In this document: in pieces, positions 640 through 10,024 of the stretch
Layout of the letters: each line of letters begins with the position of its first letter
Position numbering within the stretch: position 1 is the first letter of the stretch
Source of the DNA: a virus
Lineage: Duplodnaviria; Heunggongvirae; Uroviricota; Caudoviricetes
Reading direction: 5' to 3' (one strand)
Virus record (IMG/VR): IMGVR_UViG_2671180864_000013
Length of the DNA: 10,024 nucleotides
The notes under the pieces: model-generated
Seen by the model: the letters and a program-made list of their open reading frames with translations, nothing else
Told to the model about the DNA's origin: nothing
The model's database searches: none
Translations under genes and position numbers: made by a program

Positions 640-921
640 TTACCGCCGTAAGTGCTCCGGCTTCCTCCACTGGTAAGTATTTTTCGCGCTCTCCCTCCGT
701 TGTTGAGAACGGCGACGGTATGCCAGCAACTCAAGAACTCTGGTTCGTATGTTGCGCATATCCACGCCGTTAAGCTCAATACCGTCACGGCGCATTACCT
801 CATCCACCACACGCGCATAATTTTCAGCGGTCACGCTGTCCGGTTGCATGGCCTGTTCGTCAACCTGCTGGCTGATTCCGGCGACGCGGCGGATTAATCC
901 CAGTATTTCGGCTTCTGTCAT
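640..921 (-). CDS. Hypothetical protein (93 aa), function unknown
   Basis: ATG at 919-921 preceded by a G-rich stretch. The N-terminal ~70 aa look protein-like; the Arg-rich C-terminal tail runs into the hairpin region and may be read-through or a remnant. Confidence 0.35.
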   Translation of the reverse strand: MTEAEILGLIRRVAGISQQVDEQAMQPDSVTAENYARVVDEVMRRDGIELNGVDMRNIRTRVLELLAYRRRSQQRRESAKNTYQWRKPEHLRR

Positions 922-1100: not shown

Positions 1101-1180
1101 TTCCGCGCCGACCCGCCCCGTGGACAGGCCCCCCCCACCAGGAGGACCCGCAAAAAAGGCGGCTGCTGCCGCCTTGTTCT
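1101..1180. repeat. Copy A of an ~80-bp repeat (C-rich core 1112-1144 plus terminator hairpin)
   Basis: Aligns in register with 3631-3710; the 33-bp core cccgccccgtggacaggccNcccccaccaggag matches 32/33. Confidence 0.7.
1151..1175 (-). terminator. Intrinsic terminator ending the capsid operon
   Basis: Minus-strand RNA reads AAGGCGGC-AGCA-GCCGCCUU followed by UUUUG, starting a few bases after the capsid stop at 1180. Confidence 0.6.
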
Positions 1181-3060
1181 CATGAAGAAATCGCTCTGAC
1201 CATTCCGCGATAATCCAGAGCAGCAACGCCAGCATCAATGCGGACCTTCCAGGCCACACCGTCAACAATAAAGCCCTCCTGCTGCTCAAGGTAAGGCTCG
1301 TCATTACCGTCAAGATAAGCCACCTCAATTGTGTCCGTTCCCTGTGCTGAAAGCATGTACCATTGCTTATCACTGACTTCATCAAGGCGGGGATCGACAA
1401 TAATATCCAGTTGTTTGTGGTACGGGTTATATGAACCACTGTTTGTATCGGCACCGAAAGGCGTGGTTGAGTTAACCATTTGCAACGCTCTGTCTTCCAG
1501 AGCCGCAGGAACAAGAAGGAATTTTGGCACAATATTCAGCACCTCACCGTTTTCATCCCTCTGTGTGCGCATTGCACGGCGTGCAATGCCAAGCCCTGTA
1601 GTGCTGACTCCGTTATCAATATCATTTCCGTGTTTTTTGCTGAACAGCGGTATACCGTCAGAAAGCTTTGTGTTTCCTGTCAGCACCAGATGAACCAGAT
1701 TACCCACCGTTCTGGCGGCTGCTCGCCCCATTGCCTGTGGGATAACTGTTAACTGATTCAGGTCATCGTTAATAATCGCCTGTCGGGTAATGCTGAAAAT
1801 ATTTCCGTAAGTTGCCAGCGCGATTGGTTCGCCACGGTCACTGGTGGTGATGTATTTATATTCCGCGCCTTCCGGCACTTTGTTTAATGTAGAGAAGCCA
1901 TTCAGGCCAACACGACGTGCCTCATGGAAGTTTGACAATGAACCTTTTTTCGTCCACTGGCGGAACGTTTCGCCGCTGTGTTCCCATCCGGCAAGCACGG
2001 ATTTTTCAGCACCACCAGCAAGGATATAAGTAAAATCGCTGCTGCTGTGGGTGAATGCCGCGTTTACTATCTGCGAGCGTGTGCTGTAGCTGCCTGTGCT
2101 TATGCCGCGATGGGTTAATGATGCCTGTGCCATATCGAAAAGGCTCATCATGGCGTAAGGGTTGCCGCGTTCTGCCTGTTCATGTCCCAGACGCGCATTA
2201 AGCCCCTGACGCATTGCATCGCCGGTTATGTTGCCGTTATCCGTGTACGCGTAGTAAAGATTTGCGGGGGTGGTTTTGTTTGTCGGTGTCGATTCTTTAC
2301 CCATAGTGAGTAAAAGGCGTTCGCGTGCATCCTCAACGCTACAGCCTGAATCAGCAAGACAACTTATAGCCAGGTCGTTATATCTTCCATTGAACGTGCC
2401 AAACAATTCACGTATCCCGTTGAGTCGTTCCTGTTCTCCGCTGCCAGTTTTCTGGCTGATCATGCTTTTAATATTTTCCGGCATATTCGAAAAATCTCCG
2501 ATTCGTTTTGATTCAATTCTGGCCATTGCTGTAATCGCGGGTATAACCTCATCTGCGAAGCCATTAGCCTTACACTCATTGCCATCCATCCAGGTTTCCG
2601 CCTCCATCATGGCGGTGATTTCCTGTTTGCTCCTGCCCGTTCTTCCGGCGTAGGTTTCCGCCATCGTGTCGCCCAGCTTGTCCATCAGGTCAGCAAAGCG
2701 GCGAACGTCGCCCGACACTCCGGCAGTAACACCACGGGGGGCATGTATCATCATCATCGCGTTTTCAGGCATAACGATGTGATCGCCACACATGGCAATA
2801 AACGAGGCCATAGAAGCCGCCATGCCTTCAATGTGTACAATTTTCTTTGCCGGATGATTTTTCAGGGCGTTATAGATAGCCAGCCCTTCAAAGATGTCGC
2901 CACCAGGTGAATGGATGCGAAGATGGATTTCAGGCACATTACCGCACGCGTTGATCTCGTCAGTAAGTGCCGATGCTTTTACACCGTACCCGCCGATCTC
3001 GTCATAAATGCGTACATGTACAACATCAGCCATAGCCTTAATGGAAAACCATGTTTTCAT
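1180..3060 (-). CDS. Fused prohead protease (ClpP / S14-like) and HK97-fold major capsid protein, 626 aa
   Basis: N-terminal ~180 aa carry ClpP-like motifs (IHSPGGDIFEGLAIYNAL ... GMAASMASFIAMCGDHIVMPENAMMMIHAP). The C-terminal ~430 aa resemble HK97-type major capsid proteins. AGGAG RBS 8 nt upstream of the ATG at 3058-3060. Confidence 0.8.
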   Translation of the reverse strand: MKTWFSIKAMADVVHVRIYDEIGGYGVKASALTDEINACGNVPEIHLRIHSPGGDIFEGLAIYNALKNHPAKKIVHIEGMAASMASFIAMCGDHIVMPENAMMMIHAPRGVTAGVSGDVRRFADLMDKLGDTMAETYAGRTGRSKQEITAMMEAETWMDGNECKANGFADEVIPAITAMARIESKRIGDFSNMPENIKSMISQKTGSGEQERLNGIRELFGTFNGRYNDLAISCLADSGCSVEDARERLLLTMGKESTPTNKTTPANLYYAYTDNGNITGDAMRQGLNARLGHEQAERGNPYAMMSLFDMAQASLTHRGISTGSYSTRSQIVNAAFTHSSSDFTYILAGGAEKSVLAGWEHSGETFRQWTKKGSLSNFHEARRVGLNGFSTLNKVPEGAEYKYITTSDRGEPIALATYGNIFSITRQAIINDDLNQLTVIPQAMGRAAARTVGNLVHLVLTGNTKLSDGIPLFSKKHGNDIDNGVSTTGLGIARRAMRTQRDENGEVLNIVPKFLLVPAALEDRALQMVNSTTPFGADTNSGSYNPYHKQLDIIVDPRLDEVSDKQWYMLSAQGTDTIEVAYLDGNDEPYLEQQEGFIVDGVAWKVRIDAGVAALDYRGMVRAISS

Positions 3061-4429: not shown

Positions 4430-4657
4430 CTTCACCTGTTCACCTTTTGCAATTTTCCCTTTTTATTCATGATGTTAATGGGTTAACAGTTTCACAAAAA
4501 CTATTCACCAACTGTTCACCACTGTTCACCCTTAAAGCTCAATAAAGAATCAAAAAGGTGAACAGTGAATAGTTTGGTGAACAGTTCATAAATAACTGTT
4601 CACCCTATAATATACTGATATAAAAGACATTTATTGCAGGGTGAACAGTGGTGAACA
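4430..4657. repeat. Replication origin candidate: eight perfect TGTTCACC / GGTGAACA octamers plus variants, with AT-rich tracts
   Basis: Forward TGTTCACC at 4437, 4513, 4523, 4597; reverse GGTGAACA at 4557, 4576, 4640, 4650; variants at 4430-4436 and 4502-4509. Two tandem pairs have 10-bp spacing. Sits immediately 3' of the primase gene. Confidence 0.7.
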
Positions 4658-4698: not shown

Positions 4699-6489
4699 CT
4701 ATGCACATGATGGCATCCAGTCTTCTGAATCCTCTGTCAGGGTCACATTTGAACGCAAACCGTGCTTCGTTTTCCGTTTCATATACTCCCTGCCATATTC
4801 CGCCATTGCCCCCGGCATATCTTTACCGAAGCGCGTCAGTGTTACAGGTTTACCGAATCCGTGTGCCCTCATATATGCCAGATAGGCGTGATAAAGATAC
4901 CTGCGCGGACTGAACGGAATAATTTCGGCATTACCCACTAACAGACCATCACACATTACCGACGACATGAGATAGCCGCAGAAGTCCACCAGCGAATCGC
5001 CCTCGCGTTTTATCACCAGAGCTTCTTCTGATTTCTGCTGCTCATACAGCAGGCGTTTAGCTTCGTCCTGGTCAGAAAAACGAGTAAGCAGGTGGCGAAT
5101 CACAACCGCCAGCTCTCCTTCTATTTTTTCTGCCAGCATGGGGTCGCGTTCGTTCTCCGGTACAACTTCCGAAAAATTGAATATCACCCGACGACGTGAG
5201 ATCCCCCCGCTGCGGTCACTGAATGACATGGCGTTATTGTTAACCGCCAGCACTACTGCCGGAATACGCGTTGAGTAGGGGGCTTTGTGTTTCGGGTCAA
5301 TTGCCACCTTGTCACCGCCTGTAATGGCCTTAATCCCTGCCCCATCACCAGCGTAGCGGGTCATATCCGGCATGATAATCAGCGAAAAGCCAACCACTAA
5401 CGCGCGTTCCCTTGCATCTTCCAGCGCCTTCATGCTTGCCGATACTGTGTTGGCCTTACCCGCCAGCATGGTGCAAATCTCCGCCATCACGCTTTTACCA
5501 CTTCCCCCTGGACCTGTTACCTCAATGAATAACTGCCAGTCGTACCGGTTCGCCAGCACCATGAATAATACAGCCAGTACGCGATCCGCCTTGCGGTCAT
5601 TCTCAGCCACCGAACGGCGTAACCACTTCCAGAAATTCGGCGCATGTGTTGCCAGCGTTTCCCCCTCTGCTGGTGGGCTGAAAGGTAATTCACTGGCAAT
5701 TAACAACCAGTCGTTTTTGTTATGCTCCCGAAAATTACCTGTTCTGGTATCAAATACCCCGTTACTGAATCCAATCAGGTTACGGGCTGTATTCCCCATT
5801 ACAGGCAAACTTAACTTCATGGTATCGACCGCCGATTTAATGGCGTTCTGCGAATAGCTGATCTCCGCATCAATGAAAATCTGTGCCATAGCTCGCTGTA
5901 ATTCTTTATCCTGTACTGGCTCCCATACAACGCCGTTGTAATGGTGAACAGTGTCAGAGTCAGCATGAATCGCCAGTTCACCGCCATAATGTGCCAGGAG
6001 AACTTCGCCGCGTTGACTTGCTCCCATCTGGTTAAGCGCCAGTGATGAAGCGTTATCGTCTTTTACCCGCTCTTTTTTCTTTACAGGCAGTTCAACTACC
6101 TTTTTCTTTTCCGCCTGCTCTGCCCGTTCACGTTCCAGATATTCGCGCCAGTTCTCCCGTTTCTGGCTGTGCATTCCTTCAGGGTAATAATCAGCATCCC
6201 TGACACCTGCCACTGCCAGTTTCTGCCCGATGGTATTAACAAGCCCCGGACGCAATAACCCCGCCTGATAGAGACGCACGCGATAGCGTCCGTCCGGTAC
6301 GATTTGCAGGTTGTCCAGTTCGGCAAGTTGTTGCTCTCCAAGCCAGACAGGTGGCACGTTATCGCCAGCCAGTCGCCCGTCCTGTTCCTGCCACTGTTTC
6401 GCATGTGCCCACGCATCACTACCCGCAAAAATGATGACTTCCGTCATTTTGTCACGCGGCTGGTGTTTTAAATTTGGCGCTTTTTTCAT
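4699..6489 (-). CDS. Replication protein: primase / SF3 helicase (P4 alpha-like, D5-type NTPase), 596 aa
   Basis: Walker A motif GPGGSGKS inside a P4-family NTPase-like region. Start taken at the ATG at 6487-6489 (GGAGAG RBS; ATGA overlap with the upstream ORF stop) rather than the GTG at 6504. Iteron origin lies directly downstream. Confidence 0.85.
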   Translation of the reverse strand: MKKAPNLKHQPRDKMTEVIIFAGSDAWAHAKQWQEQDGRLAGDNVPPVWLGEQQLAELDNLQIVPDGRYRVRLYQAGLLRPGLVNTIGQKLAVAGVRDADYYPEGMHSQKRENWREYLERERAEQAEKKKVVELPVKKKERVKDDNASSLALNQMGASQRGEVLLAHYGGELAIHADSDTVHHYNGVVWEPVQDKELQRAMAQIFIDAEISYSQNAIKSAVDTMKLSLPVMGNTARNLIGFSNGVFDTRTGNFREHNKNDWLLIASELPFSPPAEGETLATHAPNFWKWLRRSVAENDRKADRVLAVLFMVLANRYDWQLFIEVTGPGGSGKSVMAEICTMLAGKANTVSASMKALEDARERALVVGFSLIIMPDMTRYAGDGAGIKAITGGDKVAIDPKHKAPYSTRIPAVVLAVNNNAMSFSDRSGGISRRRVIFNFSEVVPENERDPMLAEKIEGELAVVIRHLLTRFSDQDEAKRLLYEQQKSEEALVIKREGDSLVDFCGYLMSSVMCDGLLVGNAEIIPFSPRRYLYHAYLAYMRAHGFGKPVTLTRFGKDMPGAMAEYGREYMKRKTKHGLRSNVTLTEDSEDWMPSCA

Positions 6490-6785
6490 TTCTGCTCTCT
6501 CCACGCGGCAATCATGTTTTTTAGTTCCTGTAGTTTTTTATCAACATCCATACATGACACATGGTTATTTCTGGAAAGCGGGATTTCCCGACTGAATCTG
6601 CTAATAAAGATCTCCACGTTCAGCGAACTAAGAAATGAATAGCCATCACGGATAAAATACACACGGTCAAACATCAGTTCTTTTACCGTTACTCTGTTAC
6701 CGTTCTTATCCAGATAAATAGCGCCGGGGATAATTTGGGGGTGTGCATAACCGCTGGCAGTCAAGCCAGATAAATACGTTCTCAT
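6486..6785 (-). CDS. Hypothetical protein (99 aa), coupled to the primase gene
   Basis: ATG at 6783-6785; its TGA stop overlaps the primase ATG. No recognisable motif. Confidence 0.5.
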   Translation of the reverse strand: MRTYLSGLTASGYAHPQIIPGAIYLDKNGNRVTVKELMFDRVYFIRDGYSFLSSLNVEIFISRFSREIPLSRNNHVSCMDVDKKLQELKNMIAAWREQK

Positions 6786-6791
6786 GATTAT

Positions 6792-7112
6792 TTATCCCCG
6801 ATTTGAATCAGTATTCGCTTTCTTTATAGCATTTAATGCATCTGTGGCATTTTCAATGGTGCACCGTAACGAAATATCAAAATGTCCAAGCATTGCCAGT
6901 AACAAACCGATATTACCCATATCAATGCGCATGGCCTTTTCGTCATAGTCCTCATTTTCTGACGCATGCCACATCAGGCTACCAATTGACGCAACAGCCA
7001 TTGATATATTGTCAGTAGCCCCATCCGCAGCGGAATAAACCTTTTTAGCAATATCATGCTCACAGTTAAAATGCGGATTAATCAGGTACTGGTAATTTGA
7101 CATATCAGGCAT
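6792..7112 (-). CDS. Hypothetical acidic protein (106 aa)
   Basis: ATG at 7110-7112 preceded by a G-run; overlaps the upstream ORF stop by 8 nt. Asp/Glu-rich. Confidence 0.5.
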   Translation of the reverse strand: MPDMSNYQYLINPHFNCEHDIAKKVYSAADGATDNISMAVASIGSLMWHASENEDYDEKAMRIDMGNIGLLLAMLGHFDISLRCTIENATDALNAIKKANTDSNRG

Positions 7113-7308
7113 GGCACCCCCCCTGACGAATACGGGCGGCGAATACCATCACGCAGCCAGCCGGGGATTGCTGGCGTGCTTCCTGTTCGCTGCTGGCCTC
7201 AATGGTAATCACGCGCGGTTGTGCCGTGCTCAGGGCGATAAAACGCCAGATGTATTTATTCAGGTTGTACGAGTCCCGCCCTTGCGGGTGTATGGTATGA
7301 TTTCTCAT
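7105..7308 (-). CDS. Hypothetical small protein (67 aa), first gene of the leftward operon
   Basis: Start taken at the internal ATG (7306-7308) with a GAGG RBS. The track ORF begins at a TTG at 7398, only 9 bp from the operator palindrome and without a clean RBS, so that extension is less likely. Confidence 0.4.
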   Translation of the reverse strand: MRNHTIHPQGRDSYNLNKYIWRFIALSTAQPRVITIEASSEQEARQQSPAGCVMVFAARIRQGGCHA

Positions 7309-7406
7309 AGCTGCCTCGATACTCTCGTTATCGTTGGTGGTTAGACGCCCCGTATGTGTTTCCGGCACTGCGGGGCGTTGCTCTTTGTATTTCAACAATC
7401 CTTTCG

Positions 7407-7484
7407 GTGTGTTTCATGTTATGAGCGCATGAAACACACGTCAAGGCTTTTTGTATTTCTTTTTTTGTGTATACTGAAACACAC
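7407..7484. promoter_or_regulatory. Divergent promoter/operator switch
   Basis: 12-bp inverted repeat GTGTGTTTCATG (7407-7418) / CATGAAACACAC (7428-7439) with a 9-bp spacer, plus a third GAAACACAC half-site (7476-7484). Leftward sigma70-like promoter TTGACG (7444-7439)-N17-TAACAT (7421-7416) is overlapped by the palindrome. Rightward -10 TATACT (7470-7475) abuts the third half-site. Confidence 0.55.
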
Positions 7485-7505
7485 CGATGATTAGGAGTTT
7501 CAGAA

Positions 7506-7811
7506 ATGGCAACGGCTAACAAAAACGCAAAATCACAACTGACAACTGTCAGAGTCCCACTAGATGTTATGCAAGGGATGGAATCCGTTAAGCTGGACGG
7601 CGAAAGCAATGCCGGATTTATCGTAACCGCCATGCGCGGAGAAATAGCCCGCCGCCAAGCAGAAGGCAGCGGAGAAAATCCCCTTGTGTCGTCACTGGAT
7701 GCCCTGGCTAAGGTCGAACAAATCGGCATCAAAGCAGCGGAAGAAATCGGGCAGCTTGTCACCGTTGCACGCGAAGAACTCCAGCGTCGCAAGACCAAAG
7801 AACCAGAGTAA
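7506..7811 (+). CDS. Putative ribbon-helix-helix (CopG/Arc-like) DNA-binding regulator, 101 aa
   Basis: AGGAG RBS (7493-7497) 8 nt before the ATG. N-terminus fits the RHH pattern (TTVRVPLDVMQGMESVKLDGESNAGFIVTAM). Codon usage looks coding; the opposite-strand 272-aa ORF looks like an antisense artefact. Confidence 0.55.
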   Translation: MATANKNAKSQLTTVRVPLDVMQGMESVKLDGESNAGFIVTAMRGEIARRQAEGSGENPLVSSLDALAKVEQIGIKAAEEIGQLVTVAREELQRRKTKEPE

Positions 7812-7868
7812 TCACCATCAGCGCCGTGGTGTAAGGTATTACGGCGCATTGCTATGCAGGACAACACA

Positions 7869-8042
7869 ATGACCGATAAAGAATTGACCAAAACATTATC
7901 ACCGGCACGGAAAAGACGGCGCAGAAAGATAGAGCATGAATCAGAAAGATTCGCGCCATGTGCTTTTGCTCTTGAGAAATTCCTTAAAGAGCACAGGAAA
8001 AAGCTCTCGTTGCAAACCTTGGAACGAACAAAATCTGACTGA
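7869..8042 (+). CDS. Hypothetical small basic protein (57 aa)
   Basis: ATG at 7869 with AGGA 7 nt upstream (the track ORF starts at 7854). Lys/Arg-rich (RKRRRRK). Followed by a plus-strand terminator. Confidence 0.3.
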   Translation: MTDKELTKTLSPARKRRRRKIEHESERFAPCAFALEKFLKEHRKKLSLQTLERTKSD

Positions 8043-8109: not shown

Positions 8110-8137
8110 GGCGACCGCCCCCGGTCGTCTTTGTTTT
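8110..8137 (+). terminator. Intrinsic terminator of the plus-strand unit, convergent with alpA
   Basis: Stem 8110-8116 / 8123-8129 (GC-rich, one G-U wobble), 6-nt loop, then TTTGTTTT (8130-8137). Confidence 0.5.
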
Positions 8138-8156: not shown

Positions 8157-8366
8157 TTACGCTGCCTTACCTGAATTAATGCGATCCCGGCTTTTAACCC
8201 ATTCCATAACCTCGGACAGCAGCCAACCTACAGAACGCCCACCAAGATTACGGCGAGACGGAAAGCTCCCTTTTTTCTCCAGTTCGTAGCGTGTAGTGCG
8301 ACACACTCCAGTTAACTTACGACATTCATCCTCACGGATTACGCGATCTTCATTTATTTCACGCAT
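8157..8366 (-). CDS. alpA: AlpA-family (prophage CP4-57 regulatory protein-like) transcriptional regulator, 69 aa
   Basis: The segment RVIREDECRKLTGVCRTTRYELEKKGSFPSRRNLGGRSVGWLLSEVMEWVKSR parallels E. coli AlpA by eye. Start uncertain: ATG at 8364-8366 gives typical AlpA length but has no RBS; the GTG at 8451-8453 has an AAGAGG directly upstream and gives 98 aa. Confidence 0.75.
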   Translation of the reverse strand: MREINEDRVIREDECRKLTGVCRTTRYELEKKGSFPSRRNLGGRSVGWLLSEVMEWVKSRDRINSGKAA

Positions 8367-8785
8367 ACAAAAACCTACATAAAAATTACGTATATAAACT
8401 TTTCTCTTAGCTGTAGATATATGAGATCGGATATTACTTAGATTCTTTTTCACCTCTTAAATTAAAAACACAACCATACTAAAGGCTTTGTTCGCTAAGG
8501 TTCGTAGAAGCTCGTTAGTGTTTAAAATCGTGTCACGAGTTTTTAAGCGACGCAACAAAAAATGTCGTCATTTGGCATGTCACCTGAATTACCTCATTAA
8601 AAACAAATAGATAAACCATCAGGTGTTGGAACAATCAAGAAACAGAGAATAAGAACTCAGAAGAAGACATTTCAATTTTTTTCGATAGTTGACACATATA
8701 AAGAGAAGATATTTGCAGATATTCCCCGATATTCTAAGATCTATTCACGGCTGTAATCTCTTAAAGAAAAAACAGCCGTAATTTG

Positions 8786-10024
8786 TCAAGAATTTTGGGG
8801 GTAAATTCGCGGGGTCATAACAACGATTTTTTCATCATTGTTCTGGAGAAGCTCGAGACGGTCTACCCATAGATTAAGAGCGTCACGCTTTGCATCGAGA
8901 TAACGGGAGTGGTTATAGACGCGTTGCATTCCTGGCATCTGGTGGGCAGTAAGCTGTTCGACAATATGCGGATCCACGCCTAAATCGTTCAGCATGGTTG
9001 TAAATGTGTGCCGGATGTCGTGCAACGACCAGGGGGTTTGATTAATGCGTCTGTGTGCCGTTCTTCCGTACTCTGCTACGGATGATTGCCCTTTCAGTTC
9101 TCCAAGCAATAAGCCCGTGTGCCTGTTCTGCTCCACCAGCTTCATGACGAACGGCAAGATCGCTTCCGGTATTGGCCTGAATATTGCTACCTTCGTTTTG
9201 CTGTGTTCTTTCGGCACAGTCCAGAGCATTTCTTTAAAATCCCATTCCCGAACCTCGGAGCGTCTTAGCTCAGTGGTACGGCATCCGAAGACAATCAGAA
9301 GGCGAATTAAAGCGCTGTAGTACGGCGGGAAAATTTTTTCATCCAGTGCGCGGAGTAGCTCGCCAAGCTCCTTGTTTGTTAGCACTCGCTCGCTTATTTC
9401 TGCTTTTTTTCCCACATCACCTACGACCATATCATCAAGAACGTTACTGACGGCGTAGCGACGTTTACGGCAGTACTTAAGCGCCTGTTTGCATACCTGC
9501 AACAAAAAGCCGGCTGATACCGGATTACGCTTAGCAAGCTGGTCAAAACAGGCCAGCCAGTGGCGTAGCTCGCATTTATCCAGCGGCATAGCACCAATCT
9601 GGCTGATTATGTGCTTATTGATACGGCTTTTCAGTGATTCGTGGTCAGTGCGCTTTTCCTTCGCATACGACTCAAGCCAGTAAGTGAGCGCGTCCTTAAC
9701 CGTCACAGGGGCTAACGCTTCCTGCACTGTGTGATTAAGCTCATGGCGTGGATTTTTCCCCTCCGCCAGCCAGGCGCGACACTGTGCCGCTTTTTCCCTG
9801 GCTGCTTTCAGGCTCAGATCGGGATAGTTGCCCAGTCTCAGGCGTTCCGGTGATACCTGCCTGCCAGTTCCGGCCCTGTAAGTGAAATACCAGGTTAACA
9901 GGCCGCTGGTGGAATGTCTTACGCTAAGATTGCCACCGTCATTAAAAAAGGCGTTTTTTGTGGTTGGTGATCCGCTTAATTTTCGTAAAAGAGTGTCGCT
10001 AAGTCTATGAATTGCGCTGCTCAT
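8786..10024 (-). CDS. int: Tyrosine recombinase / integrase, P4-like, 412 aa
   Basis: N-terminal arm-binding-like region (FNDGGNLSVRH ... WYFTYR ... LGNYPDLSLKAAREKA) and C-terminal catalytic region with HDIRHT and downstream Tyr. The ATG is at the window edge, so a longer N-terminus cannot be excluded. Confidence 0.9.
   Translation of the reverse strand: MSSAIHRLSDTLLRKLSGSPTTKNAFFNDGGNLSVRHSTSGLLTWYFTYRAGTGRQVSPERLRLGNYPDLSLKAAREKAAQCRAWLAEGKNPRHELNHTVQEALAPVTVKDALTYWLESYAKEKRTDHESLKSRINKHIISQIGAMPLDKCELRHWLACFDQLAKRNPVSAGFLLQVCKQALKYCRKRRYAVSNVLDDMVVGDVGKKAEISERVLTNKELGELLRALDEKIFPPYYSALIRLLIVFGCRTTELRRSEVREWDFKEMLWTVPKEHSKTKVAIFRPIPEAILPFVMKLVEQNRHTGLLLGELKGQSSVAEYGRTAHRRINQTPWSLHDIRHTFTTMLNDLGVDPHIVEQLTAHQMPGMQRVYNHSRYLDAKRDALNLWVDRLELLQNNDEKIVVMTPRIYPQNS

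Follow-up and report, generated by a model that had tools for sequence, protein, structure and literature searches.

A two-gene plus-strand module of an Escherichia coli PICI-type satellite encodes a probable ribbon-helix-helix regulator with candidate operators over two divergent promoters

In Gram-negative PICIs AlpA acts as an activator; its overexpression induces the island EcCICFT073 and helper phages switch alpA on (Fillol-Salom et al. 2018, PMC6092414). Whether these islands possess a global repressor has been termed "unclear" (PMC6092414), and since EcCICFT073 is induced by AlpA alone, quiescence could reflect the mere lack of an activator. This raises the question of what is encoded by a small module that is convergent with alpA in the DNA studied here (10,024 nucleotides, hereafter the window). 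From the sequence alone, a first-pass annotation had suggested a master repressor and a partner, or alternatively an antitoxin-like/toxin-like pair. We report that the module is probably a regulatory cassette of a Gram-negative PICI, in which a ribbon-helix-helix (RHH) protein would repress the replication operon, regulate its own gene and carry an exchangeable specificity.

The window has the features by which Gram-negative PICIs are recognised, i.e. int, alpA and a P4-type primase gene, a size of about 10-15 kb, genes mostly in one direction, no tail or lysis genes and a specific chromosomal site, here between clpS and cspD, and its organisation is identical to that of the prototype island EcCICFT073. 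In E. coli O111:H8 an island of 92% identity is flanked by clpS and cspD and has the capsid fusion gene as its last gene, and therefore we classify the window as a PICI-type satellite of approximately 10 kb and not as a full cf-PICI. Specifically, from the cf-PICI capsid and packaging set (major capsid protein, protease, portal, connectors, HNH and terminases) only the ClpP-protease/capsid fusion is present before the island ends at clpS, while a relative in SMS-3-5 carries the full set, including portal, terminases and connectors. Gram-negative PICIs are described as having essentially one direction of transcription and a dynamic zone that separates alpA from the genes for replication (PMC10111431). 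The module of the window lies between alpA and the icd-like/primase operon (Table 1). The annotated alpA frame probably starts at 8366, which would give a 69-aa protein (AlpA is annotated with 69-74 aa in relatives), and the product of the Icd-like gene, the presumed target of repression, has 67 aa in the RefSeq annotation. A 761-bp region around the module occurs with 99.9% identity in many complete E. coli genomes; it is matched at least in part in 1380 of 5426 such genomes (about a quarter), with at least 80% of the region covered in 369 of the 1380. EcCICFT073 carries a corresponding module on the opposite strand, and the late-added locus tags of its genes suggest that they were missing from the original annotation. 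In the literature on YlcI/YnfO/DUF3950, on ribbon-helix-helix proteins of PICIs and on EcCICFT073 regulation we found no functional study of the module.

Table 1. Features of the window, in order of position ("." denotes no assigned strand).
Feature	Position	Strand	Remarks
ClpP-protease/major-capsid fusion gene	1180-3060	minus	
SSB gene		minus	After the primase gene
P4-type primase gene	4699-6504	minus	TIGR01613, E = 1.8e-27, below curated cutoff
DUF4222 gene		minus	After the 106-aa gene
106-aa gene		minus	After the Icd-like gene
Icd-like gene	7105-7308	minus	NF033153, E = 3.4e-19; phrog_6196; first gene of the divergent early/replication operon
Weak operator-like copy, TTGTATTTCA	7385-7394	.	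Two mismatches; repeat family D3
Candidate operator O1, TCGGTGTGTTTCA	7404-7416	.	Inverted orientation; abuts downstream edge of minus-strand -10, over predicted start
Promoter of icd-like/primase operon	7416-7444	minus	-35 TTGACG (7444-7439), 17-nt spacer, -10 TAACAT (7421-7416)
Candidate operator O2, CATGAAACACACG	7428-7440	.	In spacer, touching -35 of minus-strand promoter
-10-like hexamer TATACT of module promoter	7470-7475	plus	Conserved as TATAnT across genera
Candidate operator O3, TGAAACACACCGA	7475-7487	.	Directly after plus-strand TATACT, over predicted transcription start of the module
101-aa YlcI/YnfO-family protein gene	7506-7811	plus	Predicted N-terminal RHH domain, residues ~9-52; conserved long C-terminal helix, 59-98
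Intercistronic hairpin	7821-7847	plus	11-bp stem, no U tract; conserved; within the 57-nt spacer
57-aa basic helical protein gene	7869-8042	plus	Core ERFAPCAFALEKFLKE; Arg/Lys-rich N-terminal half
Intrinsic terminator	8110-8137	effective on plus only	Stem 8110-8129 followed by UUUGUUUU
alpA (activator family)	8157-8453	minus	PF05930, E = 4.8e-16; convergent with the module
int	8786-10024	minus	

The first-pass annotation had described the module as the only plus-strand unit, with two ORFs, a strong RBS, a promoter and a terminator of its own, and this description holds with one qualification. Both ORFs are real, and in the RefSeq annotation of two related E. coli islands the module genes alone occupy this strand in the counterpart of the window. 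The second ORF is open over 62 aa (7854-8042), and a conserved ATG at 7869 gives a protein of 57 aa; its homologs begin with MTDKE or MTNKE and lack the upstream ATG, and RefSeq gives 57 aa in near-identical islands. The 101-aa gene is preceded by AGGAG (7493-7497), 8 nt before its ATG and kept as AAGGAG in other genera, and the 57-aa gene by AGGA (7858-7861), 7 nt before its ATG. The spacer between the two genes is fixed at 57 nt, and the hairpin in it is retained after the stop codon of the RHH gene even where the small ORF has been replaced (loci of the L064/L075 type). Downstream of the module the T tract of the terminator ends 20 nt from the stop codon of alpA; the predicted folding energy is -16.2 kcal/mol (z = -4.7; none of 200 shuffled sequences folded equally well), and the minus-strand version of the hairpin is weak and lacks a U tract. 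The qualification concerns the promoter: the -10-like hexamer is conserved across genera and is preceded by a T-rich stretch, but there is no recognisable -35 element and the promoter was not called by the consensus scan.

The larger product, which had been taken for an acidic and RHH-like protein, can be assigned to a family. It matches the YlcI/YnfO N-terminal model (NCBIfam NF041551; DUF3950) with 63.2 bits against a cutoff of 30 (E = 1.6e-17), residues 9-50 covering profile positions 1-42 of 42; identical proteins are named YlcI/YnfO family in RefSeq, and phrog_6522, which has no assigned function, is matched over the full length. The earlier statement that neither product is recognisable thus stands for the 57-aa protein, which in PHROGs matches only phrog_21027 (no assigned function), and has to be modified for the 101-aa protein, which has a family name, albeit one without a known function. 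Its acidity is mild (pI 5.6) and unevenly distributed, with a basic N-terminal domain (pI 9.7) and an acidic C-terminal domain (pI 4.9). AlphaFold2 predicts (pLDDT 79) an extended N-terminal segment, helices at residues 19-28 and 35-52, and a long helix at 59-98 (pLDDT ~90). The best structural matches of the N-terminal domain are the RHH autoregulators CopG, omega, ParD and TacA. None of the curated RHH families was matched at threshold; the sole Pfam match of this kind, PSK_trans_fac, scored 16.2 bits against a cutoff of 28.3. Alignment with hhalign to Arc and Mnt gave probabilities of 9% and 1%, respectively, which are not significant, with the strand signature x-R-x-P-x-[DE]-[VL] in register with both. 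Family membership and the fold model support the proposed RHH fold, and the 101-aa protein is probably an RHH DNA-binding protein. In the alignment to Arc, residues 12, 14 and 16 are the predicted contact positions; Arg16 is invariant, and positions 12 and 14 vary between the classes of homologs described below. Homologs of the 101-aa protein are spread across Enterobacterales. Shorter relatives (52-70 aa), K-12 YlcI among them, consist of the N-terminal domain only, and the RHH protein of EcCICFT073 is a 59-aa short form without the C-terminal domain; members of the family can thus do without the C-terminal helix.

The region upstream of the 101-aa gene separates it from the divergent ORF by 107 bp and from the annotated icd start by approximately 197 bp. 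Within the 107-bp gap the sequence TGAAACACAC occurs in three exact copies, at 7407-7416 (inverted), 7430-7439 and 7475-7484, all of them within 78 bp; allowing one mismatch, no further copy was detected in the 10-kb window. Three copies of one exact 8-mer appeared in only 1 of 1000 dinucleotide shuffles. The three copies are contained in the candidate operators O1-O3 (Table 1), of which O1 and O2 constitute an inverted repeat around the minus-strand -10 with centres 23 bp apart. In addition to the weak copy in Table 1, weak operator-like copies are present at 7451-7460 and 7354-7363. The minus-strand promoter was called by the scan, and the positions of its hexamers are kept in E. coli, Klebsiella and Photorhabdus. 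The placement of O1-O3 relative to the two promoters resembles that usual for repressors.

To relate the repeats to the proteins encoded nearby we examined 105 loci taken from public assemblies, GTDB genomes and IMG/VR contigs. The repeats recur at constant offsets from the ATG (approximately -98, -75, -53 and -30), with two to four copies per locus, and where their sequence differs between loci it has changed in all copies together. The homologs fall into about ten classes, in each of which a repeat type is paired with a distinct N-terminal strand sequence: GAAACAC with QLTTVRV, CTTACAC with QSLTARI, GATATAC with QMTTIRV, GAATACC with QQLNARF, GAATCAC with KQISIRI, ATGCACAC with QIKNVRV, ATACACAC with QLKNIRI and, in EcCICFT073, GGCCCAC with QALKARV. 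Such joint alteration of several sites in a locus suggests that one trans-acting factor recognises them all, and natural recombinants indicate which. In locus L007, alpA, the C-terminal domain and the small ORF are ~99-100% identical to those of the window, and the N-terminal domain and the repeats are different; in L045 the repeats and the N-terminal domain are identical and the icd region differs; in L073 the recombination breakpoints lie at approximately -150 and +50 to +100; and Photorhabdus and E. coli have the QLTTVRV strand and its repeat in common, with unrelated alpA regions and the rest diverged. Because of these recombinants, the repeats can be said to track the N-terminal domain of the RHH protein and not AlpA or Icd. 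Since the operators and the N-terminal domain are physically adjacent, partial co-inheritance is expected, but such linkage would leave unexplained the joint change of multiple sites per locus. The 101-aa gene is always found between int/alpA and the icd-like/primase operon and divergent from the latter, and this synteny holds in E. coli, Klebsiella, Photorhabdus, Serratia and other genera despite quite different late regions.

The strands QLTTVRV and QMTTIRV differ by just two conservative changes and yet belong to different repeats. Specificity must accordingly rest on more than the three predicted contact residues.

An alternative is that the repeats are bound by another factor, for instance by AlpA, by an activator of the helper phage or by a protein encoded in the minus-strand operon. 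The RHH protein would then serve a different purpose, e.g. local regulation of the downstream cargo gene alone, as may hold for YlcI/YnfO genes in the moron regions of lambdoid prophages. AlpA is a proven activator of PICI genes with unmapped binding sites (PMC6092414), ylcI in DLP12 stands alone on the opposite strand, upstream of nohD and not beside a replication operon, and adjacency of repeats and N-terminal domain could alone create an association. The recombinants argue against AlpA, which is nearly the same in the window and L007 where the repeats differ, and unrelated in Photorhabdus where they are the same; the L045 locus likewise argues against a product of the icd region. With respect to phage-encoded factors, tblastn with both module proteins gave no match among 50,697 phage records. 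Moreover, the sites lie within core promoter elements, a position typical of repressors. On balance we regard binding of the repeats by a different factor as unlikely.

The first-pass suggestion of a repressor thereby gains support from family, fold model, repeats over two divergent promoters and the co-variation of repeats with the N-terminal domain in about ten classes. No C4, IsrK or other leader RNA was detected in the window with Rfam (E up to 1), so that among recognisable negative regulators the RHH protein alone remains. (The Rfam search returned just spurious miRNA matches on an origin-like inverted repeat.) In the mechanism that we propose, dimers of the 101-aa protein, probably joined via the C-terminal helix, would bind the TGAAACACAC repeats in the divergent promoter region. 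Occupancy of O1 and O2, around the -10 and touching the -35, would turn off the icd-like/DUF4222/primase operon and keep the replication genes silent in the quiescent island, and occupancy of O3, over the start of the module's own transcript, would let the protein limit its own synthesis. The N-terminal domain and the repeats would together form an exchangeable specificity ("immunity") cassette, present in some ten variants, and the 57-aa gene would be expressed together with the repressor gene from a variable downstream slot. As for induction, transcription of alpA activated by the helper might continue past the module, antisense to its genes, and enter the replication operon, and would in this way both override and silence the repressor; such read-through is possible because the module terminator works on the plus strand only, and this route would fit the published sufficiency of AlpA.

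RHH proteins also serve as partition or architectural factors, e.g. ParG and omega, and the 101-aa protein could be an activator or an architectural factor (an accessory in excision, packaging or replication) instead of a repressor. Apart from these precedents, the additional weak sites, of which there are several, point to an extended array of protein on DNA, and a search of PDB profiles gave a borderline match of the C-terminal part to the helix-hairpin-helix of Hef/XPF (E = 0.004). The latter assignment was not adopted because AlphaFold2 gives one continuous helix for residues 59-98 and no Pfam helix-hairpin-helix family is matched. Further, the sites fall on the -10, start and -35 positions of the promoters and not upstream of them, and the origin-like iteron cluster of the window is elsewhere, at 4486-4599 downstream of the primase gene, where origins of Gram-negative PICIs have been reported (PMC10111431). 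A role of this kind therefore appears quite improbable to us.

With repression by the 101-aa protein as the preferred reading, the 57-aa protein needs to be placed. It is Lys/Arg-rich, as had been noted (17 K+R, pI 10.3, net charge +7.7), and AlphaFold2 predicts a helical protein with low confidence (pLDDT 68). The ORF is truly coding: pairwise comparisons give a median dN/dS of 0.28 (range 0.15-0.53), and indels are exclusively in-frame. A profile search identified 105 homologous proteins, of which the named ones are all from Escherichia/Shigella and all "hypothetical", and none of the 105 has a Pfam domain; a "RelE" label given by JGI to one homolog has no supporting Pfam match and was set aside. 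The first-pass annotation had suggested a partner of the repressor, but an obligate partnership with the RHH protein does not agree with the distribution of the gene. It is absent beside full-length RHH homologs in Klebsiella, Photorhabdus, Xenorhabdus and Serratia, it also follows the 59-aa short RHH gene of EcCICFT073, and in other islands its slot is occupied by unrelated cargo. In place of the 57-aa gene the slot may contain a gene for a distant 75-aa variant, in which nothing but the FALE(D/K)F..KY motif is retained, or for a 178-aa membrane-like protein without relationship to it; where the slot is empty, a canonical terminator follows the RHH gene. We treat the 57-aa gene as co-expressed cargo or an accessory in a variable slot, and a role of its product as an accessory regulator or in phage interference seems to us more likely than one as a toxin.

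The antitoxin/toxin pair, in which an autoregulating RHH antitoxin of type II would neutralise the 57-aa basic protein with its C-terminal part, is quite improbable and is not supported by the data: the 57-aa protein matches no toxin family (Pfam, NCBIfam, PHROGs, PADLOC), with no match of the module to PADLOC defence models; it is hydrophilic and predicted all-helical, unlike the usual folds of type II toxins or the membrane toxins of type I; the coupling of the genes is loose, 57 nt and a hairpin apart with no overlap; the RHH gene is commonly solitary, full-length homologs in many genera lacking the 57-aa gene, which follows an RHH gene without the C-terminal domain as well (EcCICFT073); and the candidate operators lie over the promoter of the neighbouring operon and not solely over that of the module.

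The closest working analogy of the 101-aa protein is Mnt of phage P22, an RHH repressor with a C-terminal tetramerisation helix that is encoded by a divergent gene, binds an operator over its target promoter and regulates itself. Like the immI proteins Mnt and Arc, which act at the ant promoter, it is a small, probable RHH protein, with an extra predicted helical part at the C-terminus. As with mnt, the gene is divergent from an early operon and the candidate sites are over the promoter of its presumed target, and repression and autoregulation would follow by analogy. It differs from Mnt in that there is no significant homology (hhalign probabilities of 1-9% for Mnt and Arc), that it belongs to a satellite and not to a phage, that the operon comprises the icd-like and primase genes instead of arc-ant, and that at least three dispersed candidate sites take the place of one operator. 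CopG, omega, ParD and TacA bind repeated short sites as dimers of dimers; compared with these, the genetic context and the C-terminal domain of the 101-aa protein are different and there is no cognate toxin or partition partner. K-12 YlcI (DLP12) and YnfO (Qin), members of DUF3950, have an N-terminal domain of the same family and are small opposite-strand genes too, but the K-12 proteins are short (64 aa in YlcI) and ylcI is located in a late or moron region of the prophage, and the window protein has an added helical domain of 50 residues and sits in the regulatory region of a satellite.

The SaPI repressor Stl and Rpr of Gram-positive PICIs are larger than the 101-aa protein and have a helix-turn-helix instead of an RHH; this master repressor is the point at which Gram-positive PICIs sense the helper phage, Stl being relieved by a helper protein that binds to it. 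The quiescence of the island, for which Stl and Rpr are responsible, is the role proposed for the 101-aa protein too. Their locus similarly lies between int and a divergent replication operon (PMC6092414). Unlike the SaPI system, induction of Gram-negative PICIs needs the activator AlpA. The immI region of P1/P7 (c4 RNA-icd-ant) and the CI RNA of P4 offer another parallel, since the controlled operon opens with an Icd-like gene (NF033153). In the related island at locus L073, isrK-like and C4 RNAs are present between the promoter and the icd-like gene, which identifies the controlled operon as of the P1 immI type. The window differs in that it has no match to C4 or IsrK and in that the proposed regulator is a protein acting at the promoter and not an antisense RNA.

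What is new, judged against these systems, is a candidate RHH regulator at a position where the Gram-negative PICI field lacks a repressor; the kind of regulator is itself known. A further-reaching version can be put forward only tentatively: Gram-negative PICIs and related satellites might have in this module their missing "master repressor" and immunity determinant, with about ten specificities that would not cross-react and would permit coexistence of satellites in one cell, with a switch-off by convergent transcription driven by AlpA in place of a helper antirepressor, and with the arginine-rich 57-aa protein as a new effector (phage-interference or RNA-binding). If the RHH protein does repress the replication operon, the induction model of Gram-negative PICIs would gain a second layer of control, and the mosaic variation in "specificity" among the islands would be simply explained. 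Finally, the repressor/operator pairs could then be engineered for the PICI-based delivery tools that are in development.

Chromosomal DNA adjoining clpS makes up the left end of the window; it was found in 5425 of the 5426 complete E. coli genomes, which places the island boundary (att site) inside the window, to the left of the ORF encoding 93 amino acids (see the table). The island carries a gene fusing a ClpP-like prohead protease to a major capsid protein and has neither portal nor terminase genes; it thus has a capsid gene without the remainder of the packaging set. Moreover, beyond the primase gene we identified a long imperfect inverted repeat that is probably the replication origin of the satellite; the matches to plant miRNAs that the Rfam search returned for this repeat are spurious.

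Features of the window and of the loci compared with it
Feature	Location	Remarks
Chromosomal left end	window 1-~640	
93-aa ORF	window 640-921	
ClpP-like prohead protease/major capsid fusion gene	window 1180-3060	NF045540, E = 1.4e-259
Long imperfect inverted repeat	window 4486-4599	GTTCACC/GGTGAAC units; between primase stop and next gene
Leader hairpin	window 7346-7378	ACGCCCCG...CGGGGCGT; minus-strand leader (~100 nt) of icd-like operon
Residues 45-86 of the 101-aa protein	window 7559-7799	
isrK-like and C4 RNAs	L073 2496-2681	E. coli relative, IMG/VR
Match to RF02996	L006 11326-11394	Photorhabdus satellite
EcCICFT073 module	L109 12243-12653	E. coli CFT073
Shortened YlcI/YnfO gene and pseudogene fragment in closest full-length relative of the window	L027 14702-15162	E. 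coli O111:H8
178-aa gene	+351 to +887 from RHH stop	L075/L064/L011

The leader of the icd-like operon contains a hairpin, parts of which are kept in Klebsiella and Photorhabdus, and a degenerate operator-like sequence, GGAAACACA, sits in its loop; the predicted fold is not unusual (z = -1.6). An Rfam search of the window gave no match to C4 or IsrK in this leader, and none to the "int-alpA RNA" (RF02996) in the window. The latter family does match the Photorhabdus satellite, between int and the next gene. In an E. coli relative (L073), the stretch from the same divergent promoter to the icd-like gene encodes antisense RNAs of the isrK-like and C4 types, and an icd-like fragment is also present upstream. 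These RNAs constitute a P1 immI-type layer on top of the RHH gene.

In a profile search the C-terminal part of the 101-aa protein matched, at borderline significance (E = 0.004), the helix-hairpin-helix motif found in archaeal Hef/XPF, pairing SSLDALAKVEQIGIKAAEEI with ASVAELMKVEGIGEKIAKEI; AlphaFold2 predicts a single long helix for the same part instead of a helix-hairpin-helix.

The module is also present in EcCICFT073, the prototype Gram-negative PICI, where the YlcI/YnfO protein is a short form of 59 residues, the 57-aa gene is that of the window and the spacer is likewise 57 nt; GGTGTGGCCCAC is the repeat type particular to this island. Its locus tags (RS30xxx) suggest that the module was annotated late. 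In approximately 20 loci the 57-aa gene is replaced, after the RHH gene, by an AT-rich gene that encodes 178 amino acids, including hydrophobic segments, and looks like exchangeable cargo. Finally, the YlcI/YnfO gene of the closest full-length relative has been shortened to 59 aa and is followed by a pseudogene fragment on the opposite strand; in some islands, therefore, the module undergoes decay or remodelling.
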